DNA of 57,245 bases, filler included, from Sluysia triapertura (lineage: Eukaryota): NCBI GenBank assembly GCA_046118255.1. It is 4 parts of 4 records of this genome, joined end to end, with 100 filler letters (N's around TTAATTAATTAA, not from the genome) between each part and the next. Parts side by side here need not be neighbours in the genome. Positions count along the whole stretch, not along the records: positions 28,504 to 42,426 come from JBJNIA010014533.1; 3 more parts are not named here. The stretch is one strand, 5' to 3'. Under the pieces are notes generated by a model that did not search any database, was not told where the DNA came from, and was given only the letters and a program-made list of their open reading frames with translations. The position numbers and the translations under genes are program-made. This document shows positions 6,700 to 53,216 of the stretch, piece by piece (within the stretch, counting starts at the first letter, position 1; each line of letters starts with the position of its first letter).

Positions 6700-6844
6700 T
6701 GTTGGGGTAGAGATCTAAAGTGCCATTCAGGATAATGAGAGTGTAATTGACTACAATAAAGTAAAATAATTAGACACGGCTGTACAGATTTGAGGTAAGA
6801 GGGCTTAGGTTCGAATCCAGGTCAGTCCATTTAATGAGGTGACA
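6700..6844 (+). mobile_element. Degenerate copy of the short TGTTGGGG...ACA element with tRNA-like 3' half (in EndoA intron)
   Basis: shares the tgttggggta..ctaa.gtgcc..aattgacta.aataaa leader and ggttcga.tcc.ggtcagtccat (B box and acceptor strand) with 30532-30690. Confidence 0.7.
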
Positions 6845-7048: not shown

Positions 7049-7218
7049 ACGCGATAAAGCTAGTTTGAAACCGAAGCCTCAACCAATGCCCAAACGGTCT
7101 ACGAGTAGTAGAAGTTTGTACGATGAAGCTACTAATGCAAATTCTACTAACAGTGCTGCTTCTTCATTGTTCAAATCCAATACAGGTCAATTTCCAACTA
7201 CAAACGGGTCTTTAAGAG
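7049..7218 (+). CDS. EndoA: Endophilin-A, linker exon between BAR and SH3
   Basis: tttgtAG acceptor; (K)RDKASLKPKPQPMPKRSTSSRSLYDE...NGSLR; GT donor at 7219; phases join the flanking exons in frame. Confidence 0.8.
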
Positions 7219-8419
7219 GTAGTCCTATAAAAACTAATATACTAGTGACGCTCTTAATTAAGTTTTAACAATGTAAATTAATATGATGAACTTTTTCAAT
7301 ATTCTTTGTTTTGGTAGGTTATCATTACAATCCACAAAAATCATACAAAAAACTTATTTTCTAAAAAAGAAATTTTATTTGCCAAACAGAAACTTATTTT
7401 TTTATAAAGAAATATGGAATGTTCTATAACATACTAGAATTCTATCCGTTTTTGATTGGTTGCAGCTAAATCACAAAGACACAATTTAGTAAACAGCCAT
7501 TGTATTTGAAAAAAATTTTTTTGATACGAGTCAGCTATCTTGTTTATAACCATTATTTGAACAATTCGGAAAAAATTATTATTTGTTATCCAGTTCATAA
7601 TGTGTTCCTTCGAAAAATATATTATTTGTTAATCTATTCTGAAGAAGTTATTTTGGAAAAATTCTCTGTTTTATGCAATCCATGTTTTTATAAGTTTCTT
7701 ATTGATGAGGATGTTTCAACTTTCGAAATTTAAAGTGTAAAATCTACGCAAATTATTGAATATATAATTGTTGTTCCCGATTTATTGAGGAGTAAATTTT
7801 AATATTACATAGCAATTACATGAAATTAAATTATTTTAATTCTAAAATAACATTTTGCTTTTAATTTATTTTTCAAGACCCTCTACGAGGTATACGGATA
7901 GATATCTAAATATTTTTAAAGTGTTTGCGTGCTCAATTTTATTTTGTCGTAAGTTAAGAGTTAAGGAAACCTCAGCAGTTTTGTGTATTTCAGTTTATCT
8001 TTAAAGAGTTTTGATTGGACTTTTAATGTTTTTTAATCTTTTATGATCTTTTATTTATTCTACATTACTGATACCAGAAATTTTTACAAAGCTAACAAAT
8101 TACAAAAACTAAGTTTTATAATAATCTATTTTTATACAAAAATTATCTCAACCAATCGAAATTTTAATAATAATTTTTTCTTTAAAAAGTATGAATTATC
8201 TTTTTGGTTTTGTATAACTAAAAGTTCTTTTTAATTCTTGATATTATGTTCACAAATTATACTAAACTAAAGATATATTAAAATGTATAAATATCAAATA
8301 AAATAGATATGTATATTTATATATATAATTCTAAAATCGACGTGAATGTTTAAATAATCCCAACTAAATTATCTTTCAAATATAATCAAAATATACATTA
8401 ATCATTTATAATATTTTAG

Positions 8420-8601
8420 AACCTAGTGCTCGCGGTATCTATGATTTTGATGCTGAAAATGACACAGAGTTGGCTTTCAAAGAAGGTGATATATTGAAAT
8501 TGATTCAGCAAGTAGATGAAAATTGGTATGAAGGTGAATTGAACGGCCGACAAGGATACTTTCCTGTTAACTATGTCGAAGTGATTGTTCCCTTATCATA
8601 G
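8420..8601 (+). CDS. EndoA: Endophilin-A, terminal exon (SH3 domain)
   Basis: ttttAG acceptor; EPSARGIYDFDAENDTELAFKEGDILKLIQQVDENWYEGELNGRQGYFPVNYVEVIVPLS-TAG, a typical endophilin-A C-terminal SH3; missed by the ORF track. Confidence 0.93.
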
Positions 8602-13204: not shown

Positions 13205-13304
13205 NNNNNNNNNNNNNNNNNNNNNNNNNNNNNNNNNNNNNNNNNNNNTTAATTAATTAANNNNNNNNNNNNNNNNNNNNNNNNNNNNNNNNNNNNNNNN
13301 NNNN
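13205..13304. other. Artificial assembly linker (N44-TTAATTAATTAA-N44)
   Basis: identical 100-bp structure at three places; the core gives stops in all six frames. Confidence 0.97.
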
Positions 13305-13381
13305 TTTAATAACGCTCTACTTATCATATTATTCCAAGTTTTGACCCTTATATCAACCCTTATCCTTCACTAATCCCAACA
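13305..13381 (-). repeat. Terminus of a dispersed TGTTGGGATTAGTGAAGG repeat (LTR-like), cut by the gap
   Basis: reverse complement of 28329-28403; diverged third copy at about 43340-43417; identity stops at the TG/CA end. Confidence 0.8.
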
Positions 13382-14198
13382 GTACGATGAAATATATTAT
13401 GAATGATGAATTTTGTAAATTGAAGAGATTTTTAAACAATGTCTTTAATTAATATTAATTATATTTAATGTAGATGTCCGTCTGATAAAATAGGTTCTAG
13501 AATAGCATAAGTGAACGTTATTCAGTGATTGTGTAGAGTAGATGATTAACATTTTGTTAGTAATGGAGTGGTAAACAAATAAATTTCTGTTAGTTGTCAA
13601 TAGTTTATTGGTTATAATAATTAAAATTAAAATGTAAATTTGGAAAATTGCCCTTTACGTGTTTAAAACGTTCAGTAAAGGAAAATAAATCTCGAGTTAT
13701 GAAATTCATATGAGTCGGTCTGAATGCAAGGTCGACTTAATGTCATATGATACAGATTATCTAAATGATAATGATGATTAAAAATAGGATTTTTCCGTTT
13801 TAGGAACATATCTTGCAATGATTTTTATCAGAAAATTAATCCTTTTATTAATAAAAAATCAAATTGAAATATTTCTTATATATATGTGTGTATCTGTGTT
13901 TATATTATATTTCAGATCTTTTACATCACTTTTTCTTATATTTTAAATTCTTTTGACTTTTTATCTACTTTCTTACACTAACTGGACAATCCCAACACAA
14001 AAACAACTTAGTTATTTTATATTGGTGCATTATTTTATATCTCTAATTGATGCATTAATATTTCCTGATGTATGCGAAAGTTTTTCGTTACAAACGTGAG
14101 TTTTATACGAATTTTTTATGAAATTATCTTGTTCTTTATCACGTAATGTACATATCAAAGTTTTATTTATATTTTTTTTATGTTTTATTTTTCATTAA

Positions 14199-14670
14199 TT
14201 GATGTTACGGTCCTTAAGAACAATAGACATATTAAACATGCATCAACAACCTCTCTACGCAATGAATGATTCTTCTTCCAACAGCCAGAAATTCAATACA
14301 ACAACAACCAATAATGAAACACAGAATCTTCTCTTGCAAGTCCAAAATCTTACGAAACAGGTCGCTGACCTTACAAAAATTCTATGTTCAGAATCAAGAG
14401 AGAACTCACCAACAAGAAGAGAAAGTTCTCCCACATTTTCAACGAATTCTTCTAACTCAAATAAATCTGTAAAAAATTTGCTACTATCACAAAATATTCC
14501 AACAACAGGCTAAATCCTGCCTACTAGAATGTAGATTTCCAAATAAATCTACAAGCCTAACAGTTAAAAACTTGTGCGTGTACCACGCACATTTTCAGAA
14601 AAGTTCCAAAAGATGCATGGACGGTTGCACCTACTTTAAACAAAATCTAAAACCTCCTTCAAAAACCTGA
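14199..14670 (+). pseudogene. gag: Gypsy gag, C-terminal part (5'-truncated, frameshifted), with two Cx2Hx9Cx3C knuckles
   Basis: coiled segment LQVQNLTKQVADL and RS-rich tract, then in a shifted frame CYYHKIFQQQAKSCLLEC (14479-14532) and CVYHAHFQKSSKRCMDGC (14575-14628); aaaaac just before the TGA is a candidate -1 frameshift site. Confidence 0.85.
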
Positions 14671-17555
14671 AATTGTCAACGGTCAAAGTGGCTAGACCGA
14701 AACAACTGGCAATTAATGGTACCTTAACCGTGCCGCTCACCTTTACTGATTTTAAATATCCCAAACTGGATTTTCTAATAGACACTGGAGCTGCTGTGTC
14801 CGTAATCCCTCAACGTATTTAAAATAACAGCACAGACACGCTCTTTTCTTACAGCAGCTATGGCTGCAGAAAGCTACAATTTAAATTGCCACACTTCAAT
14901 AAAATCTTCGAATGGACTTTCTTAATTGCCGCAGTCCAGCAACCGATAATAGGAGCCAATTTTCTAACGCATTACAAAATCCTAGTCGATTGCCACAATA
15001 AAACCTTATTAAAGTCCATCGAAGAACTTAATCATATTAAAATCAAACTTGAGGATCTCAATCACAGCAACATAGCTCAATACTTACAACAGATCCATCC
15101 CAAACTATTACTTGAACAATTCAACGCAGAATACGTTCCTAAATCAGAACACTTTATAAAAACTATACCTACATCATCGTACAGACAAAGACGACGAGAA
15201 CTCGCACAAAAAATACGCAGAGACAGAATTCCTTGAAATGGAAAGACAAGGAATAGTGCGACCCTCTTCTTCTTCATGGGCCGCACCTGTGAAAATCGTC
15301 AAGAAGAAAGATGGAATAATAAGGATATTCAGTGACTACAGGATGCTTAATAAACTCACTGTTCCAGACGCATATCCTATGCCACTCATAACAGACATCT
15401 TTCACAGATTCACTGGTTGCACAATATTCTCTTCAATAGACCTCGCAAAGGCTTATCATCAAATCCCAGTACATATTGAGGATATACCAAAAACAGCCGT
15501 AACAACTCCTTCCGGCCTGTTTGAGTATTTACGCATGCATTTCGGTCTACAGAAATGCAGCACAAATATTTCAGCGTCACATCGATCAAGTTCTTCAAGG
15601 CCTAACCTTCACCACAACTTATATTGACCTCATCATAATTGCCTCCAGAGATTTCAAACAACATCAAACATATCTGGAACACGTATTTCAATGAATTTCG
15701 GACAATAATTTAAAAATCAAAATCAACAAATGTCAATTTTTCAAAAATAAGATCACTTTTCTAGGCCACAACATTTCTGTTGACGGGATAGAACCACAAC
15801 AACCATAAGAGACTTCCCTCAACCTAAAACAGTTACACAATGAGGGGTTTCTTAGGCCTAGTTAATTATTGTCGGCGTTTCATCCCGAAACTATCAGAAA
15901 CAATAGCACCACTAACTGCACTGTCATCGAGAAAGAAAAATCAACAAATCAATTGGAATACCAAATCTCTGGAATCCTTCGAACAAACAAAACAAGCAAT
16001 TATGAAGATGGAAAGTTTAGCATTTCCCCAACAACATTTACCGTTCTCCTTAACAACTGATGCTTCAAATACAGCAATAGGTGCGGTATCAAAATCAACA
16101 AGCGACAACCAGACCAATCGAATTTTATTCCCATAAACTTTCTGCTCGACAAACTAGATATTCGACATTCGACCGTGAATTATTAGCAATCTATCTTTCC
16201 GTTAAAAATTTTGAGTATCTATTACTCCCAGCACAATTCACGCTCGGAACAGACCACAAACCGTTGTTGCATATCTTTACAATGAAAAACCTCACTCCAA
16301 GACAACAACGACACATCAGCTACTTGTACCAATTCAATTTTAATATAGAATTCATCCCAGGACAATAAAACGTGGTCGCTGATGCACTATCACGTGTAGG
16401 TTTAAACAGCATCGAATTTCAATCAATATTCACTGTCGAGGAGTTACAAAATAATTCTCCATCCAGTCTAGAAATCTCCAAATTTTCAACAAAACCACCA
16501 TTACAAAATAGAATTTTCTATGACTATCAATTATCCGGTACTTCTCGACCAGTACTAGGAATGTCAACTCGGATAAGAGCTTTTGAACATATTCATAATA
16601 TGACACACGCCGGAGCTAAGGCCACATATCAATTACTACACTCAAAAGTAGTATGGCCTTCAATGTGCCAAAACATCAAACACTGGTGTAAAGCCTGTTT
16701 GACTTGTCAATCGGTGAAAATTCACAAAAACATAAAACCTCAAACGCTTCACTTTCCCACAGGCCAACTCTTTGATACCATACATATGGATATAGTCGGA
16801 CCACCACCACAATCTCGTGGTTACACTTACATCTTAACTATACTGGACCGACACAGCAGATGGCCCGAAGCGTTTCCAATCAGATCATTTACAACGGACA
16901 CCATATCCAGGATCTTAATAACAAACTGGATTTCACGTTTCGGTGTACCCAAAAGAATTATCACCGATCAAGGAGCTCAATTCGAGTCTAGCCTCTTCGA
17001 CAGTTTACTCAAACAACTCGGCAGCGCTAGACTACGAACAACTTCATACCACCCGCAATCTAATGGTATGATAGAAAGAACTCTCAAAAACTCCTTGCAC
17101 GCATTATCAATAAATCATAATTGGGTAGATGCTTTACCCCTAATTTTATTAGGCTGGCGCAATATCCCTCATTCTTCAACAGGATATTCTCCAGCTCAAA
17201 TTGTATTAGGAACCAACACCAGAATACCTTCGAATTGTTCGAAAATGATAACCCTTCAGAAAAAATATATTCACCTCACTTGCGGCGATATTTTAACGAG
17301 CTAAACAAATCAACACTTCACATCGAGATTCCTCATATTTTCACACCAAAAAATATATTAGACAGCAAATTCGTGTGGCCCAAATCAGAAAATCCAAAAT
17401 CTCTTCAACCAGGATACACCGGTCCCTACAAAGTCATTCAGTTTAATCCAAATAACAATACAGCTTCAATTAATATCCATGGACAGTCTAAAATAGTAAA
17501 CTGGTGTAAACTAAAACCTGCAACAATGCTAGTTGAACAACAAAAAAATCAGTAA
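14671..17555 (+). pseudogene. pol: Ty3/Gypsy pol (PR-RT-RNaseH-IN), multiply frameshifted
   Basis: protease FLIDTGAAVSVIP (14772-14810); RT YPMP..FSSIDLAKAYHQIP..KTAVTTPSGLFEY; RNaseH LTTDASNTAIGAV..YSTFDRELLAI..TDHKPL; integrase HHCC, IHMDIVGP..ITDQGAQF..NGMIER and GPY/F module YTGPYKV; Gypsy domain order. Confidence 0.97.
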
Positions 17556-17660
17556 CCTTTAACAACACTGCTACCTTACTAAACGAACAAAGATTACATA
17601 TAATTCAACTGAAGATACCAGACCCAATCTGTAACTAAACATATATGGCTCCGCATCTTC

Positions 17661-17672
17661 AGAGGGGGCTGA
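17661..17672 (+). other. Polypurine tract (PPT)
   Basis: agagggggctga immediately before TGTGGTGG, about 100 bp after the integrase end. Confidence 0.8.
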
Positions 17673-18746
17673 TGTGGTGGCCAACACTCATAATCATTAA
17701 AAATTTATTAAAATTTCACAACATACAAATCATAATCATACTCAACATTATCAATTTACAATAGCTATTTCATAAAAACATAACTCAATATTCACAATAA
17801 TCAAACAATAAACTCATTCGAAATAATATATCTAATACTCCCAAACCATTCATCTTACACTACATTTTGACATTTAATATCTAACAATCCATAACATTCA
17901 TTTAATAGTTTATTCTCTCAAACCAAACCACAATCACAACTTATAACATACAAACCACAAATACATTTAATACCATTTCACAACATCAATAAATTTACTC
18001 GAAACATATAAAATACTTATGTCACACCTTTGAATCAATTACAACACTCCAAACCCACTTTTCATCTACGCATAACCATCATCAACATTTTACAACAACA
18101 TTGTAAATATGCCAAGATTTATTTTGTAATTGCCTTTTAAATTCAATAAACTATAACCTTTTCAACAAGCCTCTCAAACCATTATATTCAATGCATAAAT
18201 CGTGTTTTCAACTATAAACCTCAATTAAATCTCAAGAACTTATTCTAACATTCTTTATTTCACTTTCAACTCAAATCATTCTATATCTTCAAAAGTTTAA
18301 AGTAAATCTAATACAGCTTTAAAGAATTCAATTTCATAAAATGAAACAGCAACAATAACTCGAGCATAGTATGCTCCGTTATCGTTGCTCTTTCATACAA
18401 TATCAGCAATCTTTATTTTATTTTACATTTTTATATGTTAGAAAGCAAAGGATTAAAAGAAAAGTTCATGTGTTTTTAAAGAAAAGATTTATGTATTATG
18501 TCATTAATAATAGTATTAACAATATTATTATTGTTATTGCTATTATTATTACCTCATATTAAAAAATTGAATTCAATTAATATTAATCAACCTGATCGCT
18601 ACCATCACCAGTGTTGACACAATGTATAACAATTCTCATTAATGTGTCAACACTGATGATGACCAATCATCGGCACTAACACTTTTTGCATACCACCCAA
18701 TCAGAGTTCATACTATTAAATATTCTTTCTTAGGCTCTGATTGGGT
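17673..18746 (+). mobile_element. LTR-like unit, copy 1 (G-poor body plus terminal two-hairpin region)
   Basis: starts TGT after the PPT; colinear similarity to 38181-39284 (gtggccaacactcataat; ttattttgtaat; tcaaaccatt.tat.caatgc.taaatc.tgtttt; ttattctaacattctt.atttcactt; both hairpins). The true 3' end is uncertain (about 18360 or about 18652). Confidence 0.8.
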
Positions 18747-19303
18747 AAGCTAAAAATAATTATATGGAGTTAAAAATAAAAATGTTACAATATCAAGAAC
18801 ACACAAAAATAAACTTTATGTATTTAATTTTTATGATCTCTTTTAAAAATGTTATATGTTTTGGAATATTTCACATAATGTTAGCAACAGTTATCGTCAC
18901 ATCATGGGAAACATTCGTTAATAATACTATTATAGCTATAATACGTTATTTTTTAAATTTTCATGTCAATTTCTCTGCTAATACAAAATCAAAATTAGAT
19001 TATATTATCAATACGATAAATTCAGAATAAAGAAAAGATTTTATATTTAACATTAAAGAAAATTTCATCTATTTTGATCATGCTTCAATGAATAATATTT
19101 ATAATACCTTTATATTACGTTTAATAATACCTTAATTAGTTCAAAAATCTATCACCTTAAGTAATGAGGTACAAGATTATTTTATATATTTCTCAACTTG
19201 TATTTTCACAATTTCAATTTGTGTTACGACAATTTATGGATGTATTCAAGTAAAACCGTCACGTATTATTTTATACCTTTGCATTGAAGTTTTTTATTTT
19301 ACA

Positions 19304-20246
19304 ATGAATACGGTAACAATTACAACTGAATATTCAGGAATAGCTTTGAAAATTGAATATGATAAACAAAATCGGCATACAACCTACTTCCGATCGAATT
19401 ATCGAACGCGTCACAGTAATGCAGTAATATTTATACTTGAATCAATGCCATTGTTTTTAAGTTTCTACATTCTAAATGTTATTTGGGTTTGTTACAAATT
19501 TCGCTCAAGAATAAAACGGCTCAAAACTCGATTCTGGTTTCTCAATGTTAAACACTTTAGTAGTCGAAAGATTGTCAAATTTAGGATTTTGTCGTTGCTT
19601 CCTAAAACGAAGTGGAGATGAACAATCACCGTTATTTATTGTAGATAATTCTGTTATATTTAATGCATCTAATCCAACTAAGCGATTTAGCCATATAGAA
19701 TCATTAGAAAAGAATAAATTTCTCAAATGTTTTTATAAAGTTAAACAAGTAAATATAGAAATTGATAATCCCATTGAAAATACACATAGTGTTAAACGAA
19801 CAAATGTTAAAACGAAGAAACGAATTACTAATTTGTCAAAGTACGCTTGGTACTTGAATCTAAAAGATGACGTCACTATTCCGAATGGAACTTCACGATC
19901 ATTTAACAAAATTAACCAGCAACAACATCCATTCATTCAAAGATTTGTAAAGTTATCCCTAAATTGTCTAAACTCTAATGCAATGGAGATAAGAAAGACA
20001 CAAGTTCTTAACCAATTCCAATTATATTTTCAAATTTTAGTCGCAGATCTAGTGGAAGATACAGATGGTGGTTATCACTTAAAGAAGATAGCAATAGAAA
20101 AATTTTATTCTTTTTCTTATCATTACTTTAACCATGTATCTTATTTAGAATTATGTTCCAGACCTGAATTTGGCGATATGCCCAGCGATGCAGTCGAGAA
20201 AATGTTTGTGTACAAAAAAATCAGTTTCCGAGTTATTAAATTTTAG
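19304..20246 (+). pseudogene. Intronless orphan ORF, probably one frameshifted gene (105-aa and 233-aa pieces)
   Basis: long overlapping same-strand ORFs in very AT-rich DNA; no motif recognised. Confidence 0.5.
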
Positions 20247-25653: not shown

Positions 25654-26325
25654 TCATTTATTGAAAGTATCAGTTTGGTGTGGTTGGGTTTGACACTGTT
25701 TTAGTTTGCATGGATTATGCCACAGATTTAAAAGTGATAGTATTTCATAAATTAACTTATTATTAGCCGACTTTATAGATGAAGGATTAAACCATGTGTC
25801 TATGTTTAAGATGTGCGTCAAAGTTGAGGACGTATTATTAATTTCAATAGAGCAATACTTATTAGACATTAATTTAAAGGGTGAAAGTATGCATGAAAAA
25901 TTGACTTTGTAGTTATAAAGTTTAAGTTTTAATGTTTTACTAGTTAATACATTGTTTTTCTCATTTAATGTACTCATTGAAACTAGTATTAAACTTTTAT
26001 TTAAATTATAATAACAATAATTCGTAGTTGTTGAATCTTTCAACCTAATGATTTTGATGCGTCTGGTTTGTGATGGCCGAGGTATGTTTGTGTAGATATC
26101 AAAATAAATTTTTATGTAATACAAATCGAAAATTAAAATTCCAGTATTAAGAAAATTGGACTTAAGGTCCTTGTAACTAAAGCAATTATGCACTTTAAAT
26201 TGATTAAAGAAATTAACATCGTTATTAAACTTTATTTTACGGGTTAACAATTTAGAATTATTAAAGAAACAATAATGTAAACACATATATTTAACTTGAG
26301 TCATAATTTTATAAAAATAACACAA
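25654..26325 (-). CDS. Intronless orphan ORF (223 aa, likely start MTQVKY)
   Basis: open 670 bp, co-oriented and about 60-80 bp downstream of the 343-aa ORF; no family recognised. Confidence 0.45.
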   Translation of the reverse strand: MCYFYKIMTQVKYMCLHYCFFNNSKLLTRKIKFNNDVNFFNQFKVHNCFSYKDLKSNFLNTGILIFDLYYIKIYFDIYTNIPRPSQTRRIKIIRLKDSTTTNYCYYNLNKSLILVSMSTLNEKNNVLTSKTLKLKLYNYKVNFSCILSPFKLMSNKYCSIEINNTSSTLTHILNIDTWFNPSSIKSANNKLIYEILSLLNLWHNPCKLKQCQTQPHQTDTFNK

Positions 26326-26384: not shown

Positions 26385-27646
26385 TCAGTTCATTAAAAAG
26401 AATATAAAAAATTGTTTATCTAACATTCTCATTTCTTTAAAACCGCCATTATCGTTTATTTCTTTGAGTCCGCTGGCCACCATATTCCACGACTCTGGTG
26501 TCGTCTTCTTCCACTCACCACATGCGACGTTTTGACCAATCGTAATAAACACTCGAAACCTCGACGAGATCAATAGTGATTTAGCTGCAAACGATTTGAA
26601 CAACGAGCTGATAACAGTAAGAGGTTGGCACGTATTAGAAGTTATCGAACATTCGGTATTATGATCGTAACCTATATATCGTTGCAAAAGATTTTTATAA
26701 TTATCTAGAAGTAGGAATGAAAATTCCTTCTTAAAGTATAATGTAAGTTTTTCAAATGTAATATATTCATTCTTAGATTCGTTTTCAACTGTTACACTGC
26801 TAACTAATAAATTGTAGCAGATGAGTACCCTTAATTTAGGGTGCTTATCGATTAAATCATAAAACCAACGTAACAAATGAATAAAATAGTTTTGTAAAGT
26901 CACAAATTTCACATTATGTATTCTATTTAGCAGTTCTTTTCGTATCTGTCGTTTAGAAGTGTGCAATGCAACAGATCTATCATCATGATCAACGCTATTA
27001 GCTAATACAATTGTGATATTTGTAGATCGATCAAGACAACAACGAAACATAAGTATTACTTGATCGAAGTTATGATATTTGTTGTCGTATAACATTAAGC
27101 ATACTTTATCACAGCTTCTAGTTGGATCAATAAATTTGACAAACCACCTCTCGCGTCCTAATTCACCATTTCTCTCACTTGAACTACATCTACATAATGG
27201 TCTCATAACAATCTCTTTAAGCTCTGATAACAACACTTGGCAAAACTTTAAAATGTCAATTTGAATTTCCAAAGGTATATTCTTCATGTAAAAGGATAAA
27301 TCACCCGTTTCTTCTTCATATTGTAACTCATCGAGTTTATTAAAACGTTCGTTTTGCTTATGCGAGCTACAGTGAAATAGAAAGCACGCTGAAACACCAT
27401 CTCCACATATCTTCACGCAATGACCATAGCATCATATAAGCGATCCAAAAGATAAAAAGATTCATCACCAATTTCGATAAAACAGATGAACTGGACGTTC
27501 ATTACTTCATTTGGTATTATATCTTTATCACTATTAAGTAAAGCATCTTTAGCATGACTCGATCTCAATGCATAACAAGAACCACACATCTCCTTTCGTG
27601 CTTTAATAACATCATTCTTCTCATCGTTGTTATTAGGTTCGTTCAT
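26385..27646 (-). pseudogene. Intronless orphan gene of about 420 codons with one frameshift near 27415-27435; shares a Cys motif with the 35070-36323 ORF
   Basis: the 77-aa ATG ORF overlaps the 343-aa ORF by 4 nt; PLCRCSSSERNGELGR versus PECVCSEDSEVSNSGR. Confidence 0.6.
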
Positions 27647-28328
27647 AGCTTATTTCTATAATCAAATTGTTTTTGAAGTTGCCAAATAATTTTTGAAATG
27701 ATATTTTTGAATTCATTTGAATTATGCTTTATGTTTTTAAACTGTCTCGAATTTTATATTGACCTTGTGTACGACATAGCTTTGATAATTTATTTACACG
27801 TAAGTGAATTTGACCTTCAAGGTCGGTCATGTAGTTTGAAAAAAATTTTTTTTGCACTCTATTCCGATATTTTATTTCACATATGCTTCATTAAAAATCA
27901 AATTTTAATTCTTCAATATTACTCTAAAAAACTCTAGAACTGCCTCAAATTATATATGATCATGTCCAAAAGATGCATTAAAATAACATTAGTCAAGATA
28001 ATTAATTTAAAAAACATTATATATAAATATATAGTTCGAGATATAATATATATAGAAAATTCAAGATATAACAAAATAATATTGTTTATTGTTCTTTTCT
28101 TGTTCGATAGTGTTGATTATTTTTCAATAAATTAATCATTGTAGATATACACTACTATTTACTATTGTTATCAACTAGGGCTATACTTTTGTGAATTATT
28201 CAAATCATCAATTACATAGATCAATCAATTTCAACATATAATTATAAACATGAGGTGTCTTTATCTGGAAAACAAATTGCTTATAGGCAAATAAACAAAC
28301 AATTGAAACAATATTTAATTGAACATAT

Positions 28329-28403
28329 TGTTGGGATTAGTGAAGGATAAGGGTTGATATAAGGGTCAAAACTTGGAATAATATGATAAGTAGAGCGTTA
28401 TTA
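28329..28403 (+). repeat. Terminus of the TGTTGGGATTAGTGAAGG dispersed repeat, cut by the gap
   Basis: inverted copy of 13307-13381. Confidence 0.8.
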
Positions 28404-28503
28404 NNNNNNNNNNNNNNNNNNNNNNNNNNNNNNNNNNNNNNNNNNNNTTAATTAATTAANNNNNNNNNNNNNNNNNNNNNNNNNNNNNNNNNNNNNNNNN
28501 NNN
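28404..28503. other. Artificial assembly linker
   Basis: N44-TTAATTAATTAA-N44. Confidence 0.97.
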
Positions 28504-30531: not shown

Positions 30532-30690
30532 TGTTGGGGTAAAAAGGCCTAAGGTGCCTTTTGGTAAAATTGACTATAATAAAATAAAATTGTTAGAAGG
30601 GGCTGATAGCTCAGTGGTAGAGCATCGAACTACGCAGCTAGAGGTCCCGGGTTCGATCCCCGGTCAGTCCATTGTATGAAAAGTCTAACA
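30532..30690 (+). mobile_element. Short TGTTGGGG...CTAACA element carrying an internal tRNA-like cassette
   Basis: three copies share an approximately 65-bp leader upstream of the tRNA-like part and have TG/CA termini. Confidence 0.75.
30600..30671 (+). pseudogene. tRNA-derived sequence (intact A/B boxes, broken anticodon stem; nominal anticodon ACG)
   Basis: acceptor GGGCTGA/TCAGTCC, D stem GCTC/GAGC and T stem CCGGG/CCCGG pair; anticodon stem TCGAA/GCTAG does not. Confidence 0.8.
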
Positions 30691-31884: not shown

Positions 31885-32492
31885 ATGTTTCTCCTTAAAC
31901 ATTTTATAATAGTACTTTTACTATGTTTGCTATTATGTTATGTAAATGGGTTGTACAAACATTTACATTCTTCGACAGGGGAATCAAACCTCAGTAACAA
32001 TTTAAATGTCAGAACGAAGTATCTACAACCATTTGAAGTGCAAATAACGAATTCAGAACGTTCATGATTTATTATTTACTATTCATATTTGATGATTTAT
32101 CAAAAACTAATAATATTATGTACTTTATGTACTACGGTACATTATTAGGTTCATATAGATATCGTGATTTTGTACTGTTGGATGATGTTATTAATATAAT
32201 AGTAGTTTTACATGATACAGAAACTGTAAAATGCTTGTTCGGAAAATTATCGTCCGAATATTTATACGTTGCAACTTGTATCCGCCACAAATTCTTTCAC
32301 AATTCAGCTAAACCTATTGAAAATTATGAACGTGGTTGGCTAGTTATTGATATTTCTTCTTACATTATTAATGATTTAGATTATTACGATATCATAAGTA
32401 ATAACGATTTGACTCTTGCTTCAGTAATCATTTTTATCAGGTATGATATAAAATATTTGAAATATAATAATATAAGCATAAATAATAAATAA
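31885..32492 (+). pseudogene. LicD/fukutin-family nucleotidyltransferase pseudogene (intronless, frameshift at about 32064)
   Basis: N-terminal signal/anchor; NNIMYFMYYGTLLGSYRYRDFVLLDDVINI matches the LicD GTLLGxxR....PWDDDxD motif with the acidic motif degraded; GWLVIDISSY resembles WPFVDIFFY. Confidence 0.75.
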
Positions 32493-32719: not shown

Positions 32720-32858
32720 TGTTGGGGTAAAAGACCTAAAAAGTGTCAAGTAGTATAATTGAATATATTAAAAATGATAGCTCAGTGGTAGAGCATTCGA
32801 ACTGCGCAGCGATGGTACCGGGTTCGATCCCCGTCAGTCCATTTTACGAAGTCTAACA
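32720..32858 (+). mobile_element. Second copy of the short tRNA-bearing TG...CA element, with 4-bp TSD
   Basis: aaat|tgttgggg...tgatagctcagtggtagagca...gggttcgatcccc...gtctaaca|aaat. Confidence 0.75.
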
Positions 32859-35069
32859 AAATCATGGGTAATGATATTAAAGATAAATTTGATGCATTAA
32901 TAATGAAAATGAAAAAGAAAAAGGAATCAGAGTGGTAAATGTGAAAATATCTAGAGCATCCTGATTACCTTATAAAGTATTTAACAACTTTATAATCATA
33001 ATAACCTTTTAAATTTAGAATAAAATAAGTTGAAATAAATAAATAATTAGTTAAAATCTTAATAAACTTAATAAAGAAAAATTACATTTGTGTGAATTAC
33101 TTTTGAATGAGGAATGCTGTTTTAAAACTGTAATGGTGTATGCATGTGTTTTAAAGAGATAATTAAAAAATGCTGAATTTTCATATTCAGAATGATGAAA
33201 AGATTGCTATGAAAAAGGAGAATTCGAAAATGAGAATGTTTTTGAAATGGTTTGTTTATAATGAAAATATTAATAATTTTCCATTAGAAAATTAATTAAA
33301 TTACAAAAACTAAAGTTAAATTCATTATTTTTAAGTAAGTCAATAATAATAACAATTGTTATTTTAATGTAAGAAGTGATTCATGAAAAATAGATCTAGT
33401 AGAGTAGAAGAAAAAATAAAATTTGGTTTTAATCAAATTTTTGCGTTCTGCTTGACAGTTTATACCATATAAGTATCAAAAGCATTATGATCGGTTTAAT
33501 CTTAACAGGAGTTTTTTATGATTTGTGTAAGAGTTATTGTTGATTATGAATTTGGGAATGATTGGACAACACAAAAGTATAAAAGAGAATAACAAAATGA
33601 TTTAAGTTAACCAAAAAAGGAATGATGATAAATAAATCCATGCGAGTAATATTTTTTAGTTTGATTTTAATTTAAGTTTTTAAATATTTGAATTTAATAA
33701 GATTATTAATTTCTTGCATAAAATCACAAAATGTTAAAATACTTTTACTTTAACTGATATTATATTTATTATTCGAATAAAATTTAAGCTTTTTTTGTGT
33801 TTATTGACTTTTTCAAATGAGAAAATAGGGATTGAAAAATATTAATTGCTGACGAATATTAATTAGCACTTCCATCTATAAGAACAGAGATGAGTATAGA
33901 ACTCAATCTCCAAAATTAAATTCATCATAAATTAAGCAAAAAGTTATTTAAAATAAAGTTATAAAAGTTTAATTTTAATTTAGAAGCTGGTTAAAAGTAA
34001 ACGAAAAAGAGTAATTTGTTTAAAAAGGAATTAGCAAGTATATAGAGATTTAGGTTAAAGCTTGCAATAACTATAAAAATTATTATTAAAGTTATGTTTG
34101 TGCAAGAGCATAAAGCTATAAATTTTATTATTTTGTGTTATAAATTCTAACACAAACTATAGGAACTATATCTTGAGAAGAGCTCACTAGGAAAAAGACT
34201 GGAGTCTAAATATTATATGCATTAATAATAAAATTTTACATTAAAGTAAGAAGTCAAAAGTCTCACATTATCGGTAAAGGAACCATAAAGAACAAATTTT
34301 GAGAATCAAAGTCAAAGCCTACTATTAAGACTTAAAATAAAACAAAATTAAGCAGAGTTATTATTTACACCTACAATTCTCAAAAATAAGCTTTAATTGC
34401 TCAGGAATCTATTTACGGGTTCCATCACTTTTATACTTGGAACCCATTCTTGATTTTATACTTTGACACATTTTATATTTTAGTGAACATTTCAATTAGA
34501 TTCACTGTTTAATGCCAACCTGTTATAGTTCTAGTGTGAACACATATTACAGTTTCATAAGTATCCTTACATAACATTAATTATGGTCCAAACACAAATT
34601 CAATCTAAAAAACTGGTTCCAAGTTGGCATATTTTTTGGATTAATGTACACAATTTAATTTAATATATATCACTAATTATTGATCTAATACATTTGCAAT
34701 AACATTTTCAATCTTAAAAAATAACTTCACACATTATCTATAATTTTTAAAGATATTAAATATAAATTATTTTACTTTCATGTTATCTACTCACTATACT
34801 TATAAAATGCTTTCATTTATAATGAACCATGACATCATAAAATAAATTTCGTTTATAAATATTTAATTAGCGCACATAGCGGTTGATAGAATTTATAGAC
34901 ATCGATAAAAAATCATACACATATTTTTATAAAGTTTAAATATATTACTTCATAAGTTAAGATATTTTTTCACAAATTAAATCCATAAAACATTTAAATA
35001 AGGAATAATATCAATAATTCCATATATTTGTATACACTCTGAAACACAAATTTGTTTTATATCACCGTA

Positions 35070-36323
35070 TTATTTATTTGCATTTAAACTTTGAAAAATT
35101 TGTTTGGGTTTACACGTTATCGTTTTAATAACTGGTTCACTTTTATGAACTGTCTTAACCACATCGATAACGACTTTACCATTTGAAAGAACTAGTTTTT
35201 TAGGTGCATTTAATACAAGAGAATTGTTTACCATTTCATTCTTTTTTATTTCTTTCGAATTGTCATTTGTAATATTTAGTTCAATGGGAACATGAAGTGA
35301 GTTTGAGTTACAGCGCTTTAAGACTTTTGATTTAGATAGTGGAACATTTTGATTCCATGACCACTTTTTATTTTCACTATGTGGTTGATTAGATACTTGT
35401 GGTTTGACAATAAAATAATTTCTTTCAAGATAGCCTTCAACTGAAGGAACTAAGTGAGAATTTTTAATCTTACACGAATTTTTTATACAAGTTTTCAAAG
35501 TACAATTTTTAGATATCTTCTGAGGTACTTCTTTATTGAGCTCGTATATAGGATTAAAAAACTGATTTACTTTAATGTTTTCTTTAAAACCCATAGTTGT
35601 ATTTCTTTCACTATCAGTTGCGTAATCTGTACTATCGTCATCTTCATTTAAGTTAAATGAACTTGTGTCTATATTTTCATTAATTAGTGATTTTGGGCTT
35701 ATATAACGTTTTTCAGATTTTTTCACAGAATCGTTGAGATCATGGCCGTTACCATTACAATTATTGGTCATAAGAGCTATTAAACAATTTACAAATTTAG
35801 TACGACCTGAATTACTAACTTCGGAGTCTTCACTACACACACACTCAGGGATTTGTCCTATAGCAATAAACATAAAATGCTTAACCAGAAATTTAGACAG
35901 AGGAATAAGAACATCCTCAGTGAATTGTAACTGCTTATTATCCATACTTTTTTTAATACAGTTTGTTATTTTAGTAATGTCAGATAAAAACTGCAAAGCA
36001 TTTTCACCAAGAACATTAAAAAGCTCAAATAGCTGGTATACATTCAAATTATCAAGCCCAGTCATTATGAAGTTATCATTTGGTACTATACTTTGGAAAT
36101 TATTTATTTCTTTTTCTAAAGACTTTAATGAATCACACTTAAATATAGGTCATAATATTAAAAAGAAAATTACTTCACATTGGAAAGAAAACCCAATTGC
36201 ACAAACAATACATCTGGAATCAGGAGTTAAATTTTGTTTAGTACAATCATTACAAAATATTCTATTACATATATCACAATTAAGTAAATTATCATCTTTT
36301 AAGCACCAATAACACCTTTCCAT
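35070..36323 (-). pseudogene. Intronless ORF of 417 codons with an N-terminal ADD-type (all-Cys) PHD finger; one in-frame TGA at codon 58
   Basis: ATG at 36323 is in frame with the 331-aa ORF: MERCYWCLKDDNLLNCDICNRIFCNDCTKQNLTPDSRCIVC; TGA at 36150-36152. Confidence 0.75.
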
Positions 36324-36444: not shown

Positions 36445-36687
36445 CTAAATTCTTTTAGACCTCTGATGTCTTTTTTCTTTTGATTTGATAAATTTATTGA
36501 TTATATTTATTAATACAATTAATCCACCGAGACAGCTATAGCTAATTATCACAGCAATTGCACAATGATAATTATTGTTCATAAAATTTTCATCATATTT
36601 TATAAAATACTTAGCATCTTTTTTAGCATCCTCTAAATTAATACAGTGACATAATTTAATTAATAATAACAAATAAAACAATTTCAT
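36445..36687 (-). CDS. Small putative type-I membrane protein (80 aa)
   Basis: signal peptide MKLFYLLLLIKLCHC, short ectodomain, TM AIAVIISYSCLGGLIVLINII, basic tail KFIKSKEKRHQRSKRI. Confidence 0.55.
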   Translation of the reverse strand: MKLFYLLLLIKLCHCINLEDAKKDAKYFIKYDENFMNNNYHCAIAVIISYSCLGGLIVLINIINKFIKSKEKRHQRSKRI

Positions 36688-38180: not shown

Positions 38181-39284
38181 CGTAGTGGCCAACACTCATA
38201 ATTTAAAATTAATCAAAATCTCATATTTGACATACACAAATTAAATTTAACCGAAACTCAATTTTCAATATAATCACACTTTTTACTATCGAACTACACC
38301 AACACAAACATCATAAAAACAACACGCGATATTTATAACACCTCATCAACTCACACATATCAACAAATCAACTAACATTTATAACCATCCATAAGACAAC
38401 AAACCCCGACATTTAATCTCGAATAACTCACAACATTCACTCATAAGATATTTTAATAAACAAATCACAATCGCAATATAAATTACACAAATCATAAACA
38501 TAATAGCATTATTCAACAACCCTAACAAGTACCTTAGAAACATAAATCATTTAAATCAACTACACCAACCTAGATCCACTTCATGTACGCATATTCATCT
38601 TTTACACTTACTAGTAATAACATTATAATATACTAAGACTTATTTTGTAATCGTCATTCAAAATTAAGACAACTTCAACCTTTCATTAAGCATTTCAAAC
38701 CATTCTATCCAATGCGTAAATCTTGTTTTTAAATTATAAATCTTCAATAAGTTTCAATAAATTATTCTAACATTCTTCATTTCACTTACAACCTAAACCA
38801 TTACATCTTTCAAAAACAAATTTAAGATAACTTTAAAGGTTTCATTATCATACTGTGAAGCAACAACTACAAATGATACATTATATACTTAGTTATTGTT
38901 GTTCCTTCACAGTATAACATTTGTTTTCCTTTTTATTTCATTTATATATAGAATAAAAGATTACCACAGAAAAAGATCATGTTCAGGCTTTTTAAAGATT
39001 TCATGCGTTTTTTTATTAATAACAATAATAATAATAATGTTATTATCGTTATTATTATCATTGTTATTATTATTATTTTTACTATCAAATGCACTTTAAT
39101 AATAATAAATTTTATTAAACTAATTACCGCCGTCATCAGTACTATTTGTGCTGATTAAAATTGTCATTAGAATGACAACACTGGTGACGGTGGTTGTTTT
39201 GTCATCAGTTAGTAAAAATCAATTTTATCATCACCCAATCAGAGTGCATATAATCCTCAATATATTTAAAACACTCTGATTTGG
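38181..39284 (+). mobile_element. LTR-like unit, copy 2 (no PPT upstream)
   Basis: cgtagtggccaacactcataat start; colinear with 17673-18746 including both hairpins. Confidence 0.8.
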
Positions 39285-39406
39285 CAGTCCAAGAAAACAC
39301 ATTACTATCTCAAAAAAATTTTTGTACTAACAAAAATAGATAGACAAAATAAAACAATTAATTAAACATCAGTTAGCGAAACTTTTACCACACGAAAATT
39401 TTGAAA

Positions 39407-40452
39407 ATGTATCAATTACGTCAAAATTTCAATTCCGAAGGTGTAACACTTAGGAAAAGGAAATTAGTTAAAAAATGTGGTGAAAACAAATGTTTATCAA
39501 CTTTGCCATTACGATTTTTGCATGTTATTCAAGAATATTCTGATTCTAATTTGAAATGGTGTCAATTCTTAAATGGTAAACCTATTTGTAATACTTCTAT
39601 GAATAAAATAACATCATCCTTCAATTATGATATACAGTGCCAAGAAATAATGAATTGGAAAAATGAATGGATTACGAAGACACATGATAACAGTTCGATT
39701 AATGATTTCATTTCTAATAAGTTACTGTCTGTTTGGTGTCGATGTGTTCAATGTAAGAAATGCAGACGAGTTAAACTGTCAACGGAAATAATGCCTACAC
39801 AATTAGAAAACGTCTCATGTAGTTTTATAATGAGACATACCCAAGATCCTTGTAAAGTGGTTGAAGATAAGAGAATTCAGTATATAAAATCAAATCTCGA
39901 AAAATTTTTGTTTTCTTTAGTTTATGAACTGCCGTTAGAATCTTCAATTAATTTCGAATGTTTCAATAATTCAGCTTTAAATATTGTCGAAATAAACCCA
40001 ACTGTAACTGCATTAGATTTTTCTCTACCTGTAAATTGTAAAGAAGTTTTCGAAATTTTCATGCTTTTAAGCAGGTGTCATACATTAATTGTGTTGCAGA
40101 AGCTATTAATCCTGTGATTTTGGATGATTGTGAAATGAGCGCGTTTCTAGAATTTAAAGCTAATCAGAAATACTTATGTCTTAGTTTTCGAAATCTTATG
40201 TTATTTTTATGTGTATCTGATCCAAAGATTTTAAAGTCCAACCCAGATATCGGCCTAAAAACAAATAAAAGGTTCGAGTTGAATGTAGATGTTCTAAGAA
40301 ATTACTTTTTTGTCGACAGAAAATATATAAATCTTTTTCATAAATTAGAGCATGTTAATTTAGTTAAAACATTTATTAAAAAGACCGGTCTATTTAATAA
40401 AGATGTATTGCCAACGGGCAGATTAAGGATTTTAAAATTACAAAAAAAATAA
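39407..40452 (+). pseudogene. KDM1B: Intronless LSD2/KDM1B-like fragment: degenerate zinc finger, CW finger and SWIRM; frameshift near 40050; no intact amine-oxidase FAD motif
   Basis: KKCGENKC..; WKNEWI..FISNKLLSVWCRCVQCKKCRRV..SC..DPCKVVEDKRI (cf. LSD2 WKKIWT..FMADQQLPYWVQC..CRKWRQL..RC..DHCSLPEDLRV); second frame INPVILDDCEMSAFLEF..LSFRNLMLFL..FIKKTGLFNKDVL (cf. VRPDVMELDELYEFPEY..LALRNLILAL..FMTRKGLINTGVL). Reference strings recalled, not searched. Confidence 0.8.
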
Positions 40453-42426: not shown

Positions 42427-42526
42427 NNNNNNNNNNNNNNNNNNNNNNNNNNNNNNNNNNNNNNNNNNNNTTAATTAATTAANNNNNNNNNNNNNNNNNN
42501 NNNNNNNNNNNNNNNNNNNNNNNNNN
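42427..42526. other. Artificial assembly linker
   Basis: N44-TTAATTAATTAA-N44. Confidence 0.97.
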
Positions 42527-49369: not shown

Positions 49370-49859
49370 CTATGACGAATGTGGTTTTAATAGAAAATTA
49401 GAATTATTTGAACTAATGAATTTTGACTGCTGTTGCTGGAGAAATTCGTAGAATTGTATGGGAAGAATACTAGAATAACTGGAAAGAAACAATGGTGTAG
49501 AATTATTGATATTATTGTTTGTGATATTAGTAGAATTAGAATCGGAATTATTGTATGTTGAGAAAAACTTAGCTTGATCCGTCGATATTTTATGTGAATT
49601 ATTATGGTTTTGTAAAATATCAACTACATTAAATGTAGACTTTTTCTGATTGGAATTTGATAAAACTGGATCGAGATCTGGAATGTGAGATTCCGGCAGT
49701 GTACTTTCATTATCTTTTGATATTGGAGAAAGAACGGTATTAATTCGTTCATGTTCTTTGGAAGATGGAGTTGGTGAAAGAGTCTGTGGTGAATTAAAAG
49801 ATTCATCTAGATCATCATCATCAGCGAATTTACTATCATCAAGATTCATTAATTGTCTT
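49370..49859 (-). CDS. six3: Six3/6 exon 3 (low-complexity C-terminal region, stop)
   Basis: tttAG acceptor at 49860-49861; phase-2 join gives ..AKNG-RQLMNLDDSKF.., in frame with the 159-aa ORF. Confidence 0.85.
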
Positions 49860-50728
49860 CTAAATATAAAATTTAATTTTTTATAATAATGAATTATTGC
49901 GATAAATTAATGCAAATTAAGCATCAAATGCACAGATTATATTTTACAGATTACAATTATTTAATAAATTTATTAATTAAAAAATTTTAAACACTTTCCA
50001 AGTGGTATGATTATTAAATTAAGGAAGTAGTACAGATTATCATAAAAATTTTTAAACAATTATATGTTATTAAAATAATCTTGATTACAAATGAATTTCA
50101 CAATTTTCTCTATATTACTTTAATTGACCTACATTAAAATTATGCGTATTATTTACGGAAGTTGATTTTAATGGCGTTATATATACATTTCATTTATTAA
50201 AATTAAAATGTCAATATGAAGCCTAATCGATAAAATTATATCATTGTTGATTTCGTTAATTACAAATTTTAGATAAATGAAATATTAAAGATAAAGATTA
50301 TGATAAGTTTTAGTTTAATATTTAATTTTGTGTCATTTACTACAAGATATAGAATAGCTTCCAATACTGATGCCTATGTGACGAGACGATTTAATCGAAT
50401 TATTGTTAAATACGATCTATTGTCAATCATTAGAATCGATATTTATAATATCGTGATAATTTTGAGTAAGAAAAGATCAAATTCGGATAAGGAATTATTT
50501 CGATTACACAATTCATTATTAAGTTAATAATTATTGAAATGAGTATTTTAATATTCAGATAAAAATCATTCAAAGATTTTTTCAAATTTTTTAAATTACT
50601 AAGTTTTATATGAAAAATACAATATGTTTTGTTCATCTTAAATTTTGTTACTGTTTTATTGCATTCTGTATGATAAATTTTCTAAATGATTTTTTATATG
50701 AATCAACCAGTCATAATATTTCATTGCT

Positions 50729-50987
50729 TGGCACAGGCGTTATTTCTAATGAACATCGAACTGCACAGGAAAATGTTTAAGGCTTCGAATAGGGATTTAT
50801 AAAATAAAAAAGTTGCATAAATTAATTTGTCTTCAAAATGTCAAAATGTAACCTATATAAAAATTTATAAAATATATAATACAAAGTAGGAAATATAAAA
50901 GTTATATTTGACATTTCTAAGACAAAAAATTAATCAACGAAACATATCAGATCATGGTTGTACCTAGGAGAAATAACTCTGTTACCA
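50729..50987. mobile_element. Palindromic (foldback) MITE in Six3 intron 2
   Basis: outer arms tggcacaggcgttatttct / agaaataactctgttacca; inner arms tttgtcttcaaaatgtcaaaatgtaac / gttatatttgacatttctaagacaaa. Confidence 0.55.
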
Positions 50988-51067
50988 ATAATTGTTTTTT
51001 TAAATAAATAATTGTAAATTATGAAATCATTTATTTGTAGAAGATTTCTTGTTGAAGGTATTATTTA

Positions 51068-51532
<465 letters not shown>

Positions 51533-51988
51533 TTACTAATAATAAATTTATAAATTTTCCATACAAATAATATCAAGCAAAAAGAAAATAATCATTTTTG
51601 TTCAAATTATTCTTTATATTGATTAAATTAATTAAATTTTTATTATTCTTTTAACGTTTGATTTATTTGGAGTAAAAATGTCTAACTTATATAAGCATTT
51701 ATTTCAAATTATTTTTAACAATACAAGGTTTTTTAAGAAAAATTAAAATTTATATTAAAAATAGAACATTTTGTTACTTACATTTCAGAAGTTAGAAAGT
51801 TAGAAAAATTCCCGTACAACAAAAAACAAAGTTGTGAAATAAAATAATTTTAAGCATCAAAAGTATCTGGCACAATTACAAAAATGTTATTCAAAATTAA
51901 TAAAATTTCAGTAAAATGAACGACGATTAAACTTAATATTTAACTTGTCCATGTATGTAACAATATTCATACACAATTTTTCTATAAC

Positions 51989-52215
51989 CTGTGGCGTGCC
52001 GAGGTCGCGTCCCATGTAGGAGCGCCCCTGAAAATGTATAAACTAAAAAGTCTAAATAAGGTCTAAATAAATAATATGTTTATTATATATTATACATATT
52101 ATATGTATTATATTAGATCCATCCACGTGGGTAAGGCAGATAATTATTTATTGCTTTCTCTAGAAGCAATTTTTTCGCCCCGGGGTACATGCCCCCACTT
52201 TGTTCGGCTACCGTG
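51989..52215. mobile_element. Small GC-ended non-autonomous DNA element in Six3 intron 1
   Basis: GC-rich ends (ctgtggcgtgccga.. / ..gcccggggtacatgccccc..tcggctaccgtg) around an AT-rich core. Confidence 0.4.
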
Positions 52216-52446
52216 TATAATTTTAAATTATATGAATATGTTTGGAAATTATATTCTTAAATGTTACTAGAAAAGTTAAAGTGAAGATAAATATACACTT
52301 AACCTAACTATTAAATCAAATAAAATATCATACGTTGACAAATATCAAAATATAATCATAAAATAAATAAATTTAGATAATTTTATTAAAGTTTAGTAAT
52401 AACTTAAAATAAAATATTTTACATTACATTTAGCAATTAAAACAGC

Positions 52447-52522
<76 letters not shown>
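52447..52522. repeat. (AAT)n microsatellite abutting the exon-1 splice donor
   Basis: about 25 perfect units; source of the poly-Tyr in the ORF track. Confidence 0.95.
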
Positions 52523-52524
<2 letters not shown>

Positions 52525-52525
52525 C

Positions 52526-52996
52526 CTGATAATGTGCTTCTAGCCATAAAGCTTGAAGTCTTCCATGACTCACTTTACTAAATCGATGCTTTTCTATAAT
52601 GGAATACAGTTCCCGAAAATCTCCAACATGAAAAGCCACAATAGCTCTTGCACGTAAAATCGATTCTCGTCGACCTAGTCCTTCCCAGAAATGACTTCCA
52701 AACGAAGGCAATGACCAAAGAAACCTTGCTAAACGTTCTATATCTCCAGCTTCTTCTAATGTTTCACAAACTCGAGAAATTTGTTCAATCGAAAACACAT
52801 TAGTTAGTCCTGAAATGGAAGAATCTATTGCTGCTAACGAAGTAGTAGGATTTCCTGTTTGTGTTGATGATGCTGTATTTGATGGCGTAGCCGCTATAGA
52901 TACACTAGCTCCGGGCATAGATGGGTTAATATTTCTTAACATCAACAAATTGTTCATGATTTCTTTCATAGTAACAATATCCATATTAACAACCAT
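52526..52996 (-). CDS. six3: Six3/6 exon 1 (SIX domain); start codon uncertain (ATG 52996, 52984 or a later one)
   Basis: [30 protein letters not shown]...[36 protein letters not shown]; GT donor at 52525, phase 0. Confidence 0.95.
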
Positions 52997-53216
52997 ACAA
53001 AATTGTTTATAATGACAATATAAAGAATGTAAATTGTAATAAATTACTTTTTCAATAAACAACCGCAGTATTCATATAAATATAAAAGATACCATTGTTT
53101 CTATTGGTTATAGTATTTCTTTATTATAATTTGTAGATAAATTTGCGCTTTCTTGATATTTTTGAAATCACTGATGCTATTTGATGATAAAAATGAAATT
53201 TATTTTTATTTTAATG

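Follow-up and report, generated by a model that had tools for sequence, protein, structure and literature searches.

Does a minus-strand reading frame of Sluysia triapertura that is interrupted by a single stop codon encode an intact protein, and is the Cys-rich finger at its start an ADD-type PHD finger that reads histone tails, as a first-pass annotation had proposed? The frame lies in a 57,245-nucleotide stretch of AT-rich animal DNA with many repeats (18-39% GC; four parts of four records of assembly GCA_046118255.1 joined end to end with filler letters), hereafter the window, within the part taken from JBJNIA010014533.1 (28,504 to 42,426). It starts with an ATG at 36323, meets its only in-frame TGA at 36152-36150 (codon 58) and ends with a stop at 35070, for a total of 417 codons, 86 of which precede the Met of a 331-aa ORF; this layout, together with the Cys-rich peptide quoted in the first-pass annotation, was re-derived exactly. 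The 359-codon open frame of the gene is far beyond chance (the longest frame in 1000 base shuffles had 141 codons), and a 3446-nt contig of run X1, possibly the window's own source, spans the gene with zero differences; hence, the TGA is present in the DNA of run X1. We hold, at about even probability, that this is an intact two-exon gene whose stop lies inside a predicted 36-nt intron, and whose product of about 405 residues would start with a finger closest to the PHD half of ATRX's ADD domain and would bind chromatin or proteins but not read H3K4me0/K9me3 in the manner of ATRX.

The predicted exon 1 (36174..36323, minus strand; 50 codons, GC by codon position 0.28/0.40/0.14) comprises the Met and the Cys-rich finger, and the predicted exon 2 (35070..36137, minus strand) is an open frame for a predicted helical region bearing Cys and His, then an Asn/Lys/Ser-rich tail, with an AATAAA immediately 5' of the stop codon (35073..35078, minus strand) as a possible polyadenylation signal. 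Between them lies the candidate in-frame GT-AG intron of 36 nt (36138..36173, minus strand) holding the TGA; the segment starts with GTAA, ends with AG, keeps the frame and has a GC content below that of its flanks. Such a segment alone is modest evidence, since 634 of the 9379 stop triplets of the window (6.8%) sit in a comparable in-frame GTAA...AG segment, and 3042 (32%) do so when any GT is allowed as the donor. Stronger support comes from another contig of run X1, 2519 nt long: it aligns to 36241-36309 and to 36092-36137, and between these two blocks it has 69 letters, compared with 103 in the window. Its alignment stops precisely at the AG (between 36137 and 36138), the donor side not being delimited, and across 36309-36138 it measures 133 nt, compared with 136 nt for the spliced and 172 nt for the unspliced form; an insertion in the window copy would leave the same picture.

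The host may be a flatworm, an impression that we take from the protein of an intron-bearing SIX-family homeobox gene in the window (49370-53071, minus strand; Pfam), which by the start of its homeodomain we take to be of the Six3/6 type; the host introns visible in this gene are long, unlike the 36-nt candidate. In flatworms, according to a published study, introns near 37 nt are common and are enriched at the 5' ends of genes (PMC6530080). Judged from the DNA, the TGA probably sits in an intron and read-through is improbable, with a spliced 405-aa product likely favoured over a 417-aa one. The read-through or repaired 417-aa protein of the first-pass annotation was not borne out because the TGA falls in the candidate intron, and the short in-frame GT-AG segment explains it better; as for the sense codon that another copy was expected to carry at 36150-36152, the 2519-nt contig lacks roughly that much DNA there. 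That is, the apparent premature stop at this locus is probably a micro-intron, and annotating the gene as a read-through product or a pseudogene is unwarranted without RNA.

The finger itself, by sequence, resembles the PHD half of an ATRX-type ADD most closely, over residues 2-33 only. A phmmer search of exon 1 against PDB sequences gave 32 matches, the top three of which are ATRX (E 8e-4, residues 2-33; 36225..36320, minus strand), at 22.9 bits vs. 18.0 for PHF21A (E 0.03), with ZMYND8, SP140, EEA1 (E 0.09) and BRE1 also ranking below ATRX. The matching segment holds six Cys ligands and an Asn-Leu; these first six zinc ligands have ATRX spacing, and the Cys at ligand 5, Trp6, Phe23 and Asn31-Leu32 are all ATRX features. 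A single copy of the motif C-x-W-C-x8-C-D-x-C-x3-F-C-x2-C is present in the window, vs. none in 100 shuffles, and metagenome contigs were scanned with it for comparators, yielding at least 120 loci, at least 96 of them unique. Among the matches listed (96 unique loci), all but about two are ATRX-type by eye, and the closing W-x-C-x2-C is in frame in 41; in most of the others an intron seems to interrupt the frame. Among the at least 120 loci, 49 fingers were full-length; filtering at ≤80% identity left 33, and a profile built from these natural ADDs matches ATRX (E 3e-28) and also DNMT3 (E 4e-9). On this profile the finger of the window reaches 25.9 bits, a score that none of 2000 shuffles preserving the Cys attain and that 20 of 2000 attain when every motif position is preserved; the match therefore extends past the motif, modestly, and part of the score is circular because the natural set was chosen with the motif from the window finger. 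Aligned with the 33 natural ADDs by hhalign, a comparison that is likewise partly circular, the finger reached 96% probability over 35 columns. The six residues following Cys6, outside the motif, match the natural ADDs at p 0.007, and the profile match ends at residue 34-36.

Pfam, in contrast to the PDB search that ranks ATRX first, gives no ADD row. Its ADD PHD model (PF21255) has no match to the window finger at E 1, and the same model matches five of five natural ADD pieces of 61 aa at E ≤0.21 and two of two pieces of 33 aa at E <1. The best rows are weak (RING 0.036, FYVE 0.11, PHD 0.21, and an AN1 row as well) and below the curated cut-offs (14.8 bits vs. 27.3 for zf-RING_2, 12 vs. 24 for PHD, 13.1 vs. 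27.8 for FYVE); natural ADD pieces likewise fall below the Pfam PHD cut-off. The proposed ATRX ADD likeness holds for residues 2-33 (PDB match, shuffle nulls and hhalign) and was not confirmed for the remainder of the finger. We would describe the finger as a degenerate ATRX-type PHD half and, since three defining ADD features fail, neither the label of ADD domain nor that of demonstrated histone reader is appropriate for it.

As for the closing ligands, Cys7 stands 19-23 residues after Cys6 in all 41 of the 41 natural ADDs among the matches listed, whereas C38 and C41 of the window finger, previously counted as ligands 7 and 8 of an eight-Cys finger, begin 10 residues past Cys6, lack the Trp, and are out of ADD register. 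C49 lies 21 residues past Cys6 with a Phe two before it, i.e., at the Trp position; none of the 19 Cys fits the closing block better, although its p of 0.07 is not significant, and splicing would set C63 (read-through numbering) two residues from C49, giving C-x-C vs. the C-x2-C of ADDs. The finger is expected to bind zinc, and C49 and C63, joined by splicing, may form the last ligand pair. The sequence after the intron gave no significant match to the ADD closing helix (p 0.24; 0.2% probability), and a helix is predicted at 66-79 in one structure model only (pLDDT 35). The GATA-like half of the ADD is indeed absent, as had been noted: the protein begins three residues before Cys1, an in-frame stop lies six codons upstream of the Met, and no C2C2 pair of Cys pairs of the GATA-like kind occurs upstream within the window, although a distant upstream exon might encode one.

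For the rest of the protein, no whole-protein homologue was found with the full read-through product, with residues 1-203, or with exon 1 against longer proteins, and the exon 2 region matched no known family or homologue in Pfam, the PDB or the protein collections searched. Single-sequence structure models reached pLDDT 56 and 35, and four fold searches from them returned noise only. A bromodomain reading of the helical region is unsupported, there being no Pfam or PDB sequence match for a bromodomain after the finger in searches that are insensitive for a single sequence. Scans of viral contigs gave no relative of the finger, its motif, or the LSD2-like and UBR-like ORFs described below.

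Could a finger of this kind read histone H3? In ATRX, a published study reports that a combined D207/D208/D212/D214/D217/E218 mutant loses binding to an H3K9me3 peptide and that Y203A, H189N and E252L weaken it (PMC12900699). In the register of the ATRX alignment, Met1 corresponds to D217 and E2 to E218; Y203, H189, D207, D208, D212, D214 and D217, which fall at or before Met1, have no counterpart here, only the E218 counterpart is kept of the six acidic residues, and E252 is not kept in register. Of the 33 natural ADDs (from the matches listed), 29 have Gly at -5 and 26 have an acidic residue (Asp or Glu) at -3, and a Gly-Gly that is invariant in them is Asp-Asp in the window finger; the Asp of C-D-x-C is retained. 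Dual H3K4me0/K9me3 reading in the ATRX style, on which the histone-reader claim was modelled, is unlikely because most of the residues needed in ATRX lie before the first Met. Because the counterpart of E218 is kept, the finger may retain some affinity for an unmodified H3 N-terminus, though with less than even chances. Weak binding of the free H3 N-terminus, in the style of the PHF21A-type fingers that recognise unmodified H3, would be one form of it. A distinct ATRX-like finger paralogue with a basic or polar loop before Cys1 was seen at several metagenome loci (L001, L003, L009, L019-L021, L028 and others); hence, the finger gene is not the only ADD-like gene to have lost the acidic loop.

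The finger gene is low-copy: 32 contigs align on its 1.85-kb stretch, of which one is identical and two partly match the finger, summed contig depth being a rough guide and not a copy number. The two partial relatives, both of the same run (the 2519-nt contig and one of 152 nt), have frame-breaking gaps of 1-4 nt within the finger and for this reason may be decayed or loosely aligned. Upstream of the gene by 121 nt is an 80-aa ORF (36445..36687, minus strand) with two hydrophobic stretches, one signal-peptide-like and one membrane-spanning-like, and a basic tail; it has no Pfam match, an AATAAA comes after it, and repeated DNA starts just past its start. Beyond it is a probable LTR (38181..39299, plus strand, ends by eye), represented by many contigs and 68.7% identical over 702 columns to 17869-18551, in the 3' LTR of the gypsy element described below, to which it is related and with which it shares a start motif; it looks like a solo LTR separate from its neighbours. 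Taking the two LTR-like units for the paired ends of one young element was rejected because they are only about 69% alike and no primer-binding site is seen by eye after the second.

On the far side of this LTR lies an N-terminal fragment like LSD2/KDM1B (39407..40452, plus strand, in two frames; PDB E 2.4e-5), the start of which is 3084 nt from the finger gene. No amine oxidase domain was seen with it, and the frames that follow have no Pfam match. Run X1 has the fragment as a repeat: 14-20 contigs cover it and differ from one another at several single positions. A multi-copy, enzyme-less LSD2 family may be of more interest than the finger gene. The pairing of finger and LSD2 fragment that the first-pass annotation drew is right in its geometry (3 kb apart, divergent, an LTR between) and unproven as to their being one unit; the copy patterns differ and the LTR looks solo. 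A third fragment, resembling the N-terminus of UBR1/2 with a ClpS-like domain (26385..27646, minus strand, in two frames), has weak matches throughout: Pfam ClpS at E 0.006, UBR2 at E 0.016, and ESM Atlas clusters for ClpS (0.88) and zf-UBR/ClpS (0.76). A degenerate UBR box is visible by eye, and a 216-aa orphan ORF with no usable ESM Atlas match follows it (25654-26304).

Elsewhere in the window, a broken gypsy element (14199-18760, plus strand) comprises pol at 14.2-17.6 kb, a purine tract and a 3' LTR from about 17674; a matching 5' LTR was not found in the window, nor were enclosing terminal repeats around the cargo-like ORFs, and none of 107 short frames searched matched a mobility or capsid gene family. 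A contig joining 32534 to 37221 was too weak to use. AATAAA stands at the stop of 3 of 12 hand-picked ORFs vs. 4.6% of all stops of the window, too weak a signal for calling the region viral. The last exons of an SH3-domain host gene lie at 7050-8601 (plus strand), and orphan ORFs of 142-243 codons at 19136-20246 and 31885-32492 (both plus strand) have no significant Pfam match; the run contains repeats of the DNA around 32.0 kb. A tRNA-like repeat (30600-30671, 32775-32859, 6798-6837), one copy of which passes the Rfam tRNA model with no anticodon assigned, is probably a SINE, and a short repeat in three copies (13205-13397, 28313-28503, 42427-42526), partly N and with central TTAATTAATTAA, is probably a MITE.

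How do these observations bear on whether the gene is intact and what it does? It is doubtful, in our view, that the window contains a recently broken copy, an accessory gene of a mobile element that is decaying and yields no full protein, its TGA being a nonsense change or the product of a short insertion. The LSD2-like and UBR-like neighbour ORFs, each divided over two frames, the brokenness of the adjacent gypsy element and the 1-4 nt gaps of both partial relatives would fit such decay, and an insertion of 36-42 nt accounts for the 2519-nt contig as well as an intron does; however, there is a single stop in 417 codons, it lies inside canonical in-frame GT-AG ends, the contig breaks exactly at the AG, and an AATAAA is located at the terminal stop. 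The model of the first-pass annotation, in which a read-through or repaired 417-aa protein reads unmethylated H3K4 and is paired with the LSD2 fragment across the LTR, we consider very improbable. It draws on the ATRX match in the PDB, the equivalence of E2 to ATRX E218, the kept Asp of C-D-x-C and the divergent LSD2-like ORF 3 kb off, and the repeated DNA that starts right upstream of the 80-aa ORF may mean that the intergenic stretch belongs to one large element; against this, the 12 added codons look intronic, the finger has neither the acidic loop nor Y203 nor the GATA half, and a low-copy finger gene sits opposite an LSD2-like ORF covered by many differing contigs.

The identity and origin of the finger can be read otherwise as well. 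Instead of deriving from ATRX, it might be a PHD, RING or FYVE-type finger that has diverged and that uses C38/C41 as its closing pair, and a PHD-bromodomain fragment might begin with it; we find this rather improbable, given that ATRX is ahead by 5 bits in the PDB search, that Trp6, Phe23, the Cys at ligand 5 and Asn31-Leu32 are ATRX-like, and that zero bromodomain rows appear in the Pfam and PDB searches (insensitive as these are for a single sequence), even though the Pfam rows are RING, FYVE, AN1 and PHD with none for ADD, PHF21A, ZMYND8, SP140, EEA1 and BRE1 stand lower down the PDB list, C38-x2-C41 is a well-formed pair, and the helix pattern at 95-156 of the pLDDT 35 model is bromodomain-like by eye. 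Under the reading that we prefer, an intact, spliced gene with an ATRX-like finger, a fragment of ATRX would have been captured and then fused to new sequence, and the gene may belong to a small family residing in old mobile-element DNA, in which the LSD2-like and UBR1/2-like fragments, each lacking its catalytic domain, also lie. The presence of three enzyme-less, host-like recognition modules in 14 kb suggests that an old mobile element captured them as cargo. A bolder form of this idea, that an undescribed large mobile element collected the recognition halves of ATRX (PHD finger), LSD2 (zinc finger-CW-SWIRM) and UBR1/2 (N-terminus), enzyme-less, and uses them as decoys or tethers to counter silencing and protein degradation by the host, with the finger gene as intact spliced cargo, seems unlikely to us.

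Compared with the PHD half of the ATRX ADD (PDB 2jm1, 3ql9), the finger shares the C-x-W-C-x8-C-D-x-C-x3-F-C-x2-C spacing with Cys at ligand 5, a Glu two before Cys1 and Asn-Leu after Cys6; unlike ATRX, its protein is without the GATA-like finger, the acidic loop and the SNF2 ATPase, and the finger has Asp-Asp for Gly-Gly, no W-x-C-x2-C at 19-23 and no closing-helix match. The ADD of DNMT3A/B/L (PF21255) has an all-Cys, PHD-like finger in common with it, but PF21255 gives no match at E 1 and no DNMT3 chain is among the 32 PDB matches. PHDs of the PHF21A/BHC80 type, the second-best PDB family (E 0.03), share the spacing of the first four Cys and have, as here, an acidic residue two before Cys1, while the window finger differs in having Cys for the His ligand and no Trp before the last pair. 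Among the literature and protein collections searched, an ADD PHD half apart from the GATA-like finger and fused to new sequence was not found; a free-standing half of this kind would offer a natural experiment on the function of that half by itself. The planarian Burro gypsy elements are giant transposons with host-derived cargo domains, which according to a review are related to apoptosis and ubiquitin and for the most part belong to a single gag-pol polyprotein; ADD, PHD and histone have zero whole-word mentions in the review (PMC6431247). A Burro reading of the present locus was a poor fit, as the 3' LTR that terminates the visible gypsy element reaches only to about 18.7 kb, short of the finger, LSD2 and UBR ORFs. 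What the two systems share is host-like regulatory domains inside mobile DNA; unlike Burro, these are separate ORFs here, on both strands and outside the visible gypsy element, and, if the LSD2-like and UBR-like fragments travel with the finger gene, they would represent animal mobile DNA that carries enzyme-less chromatin regulators.
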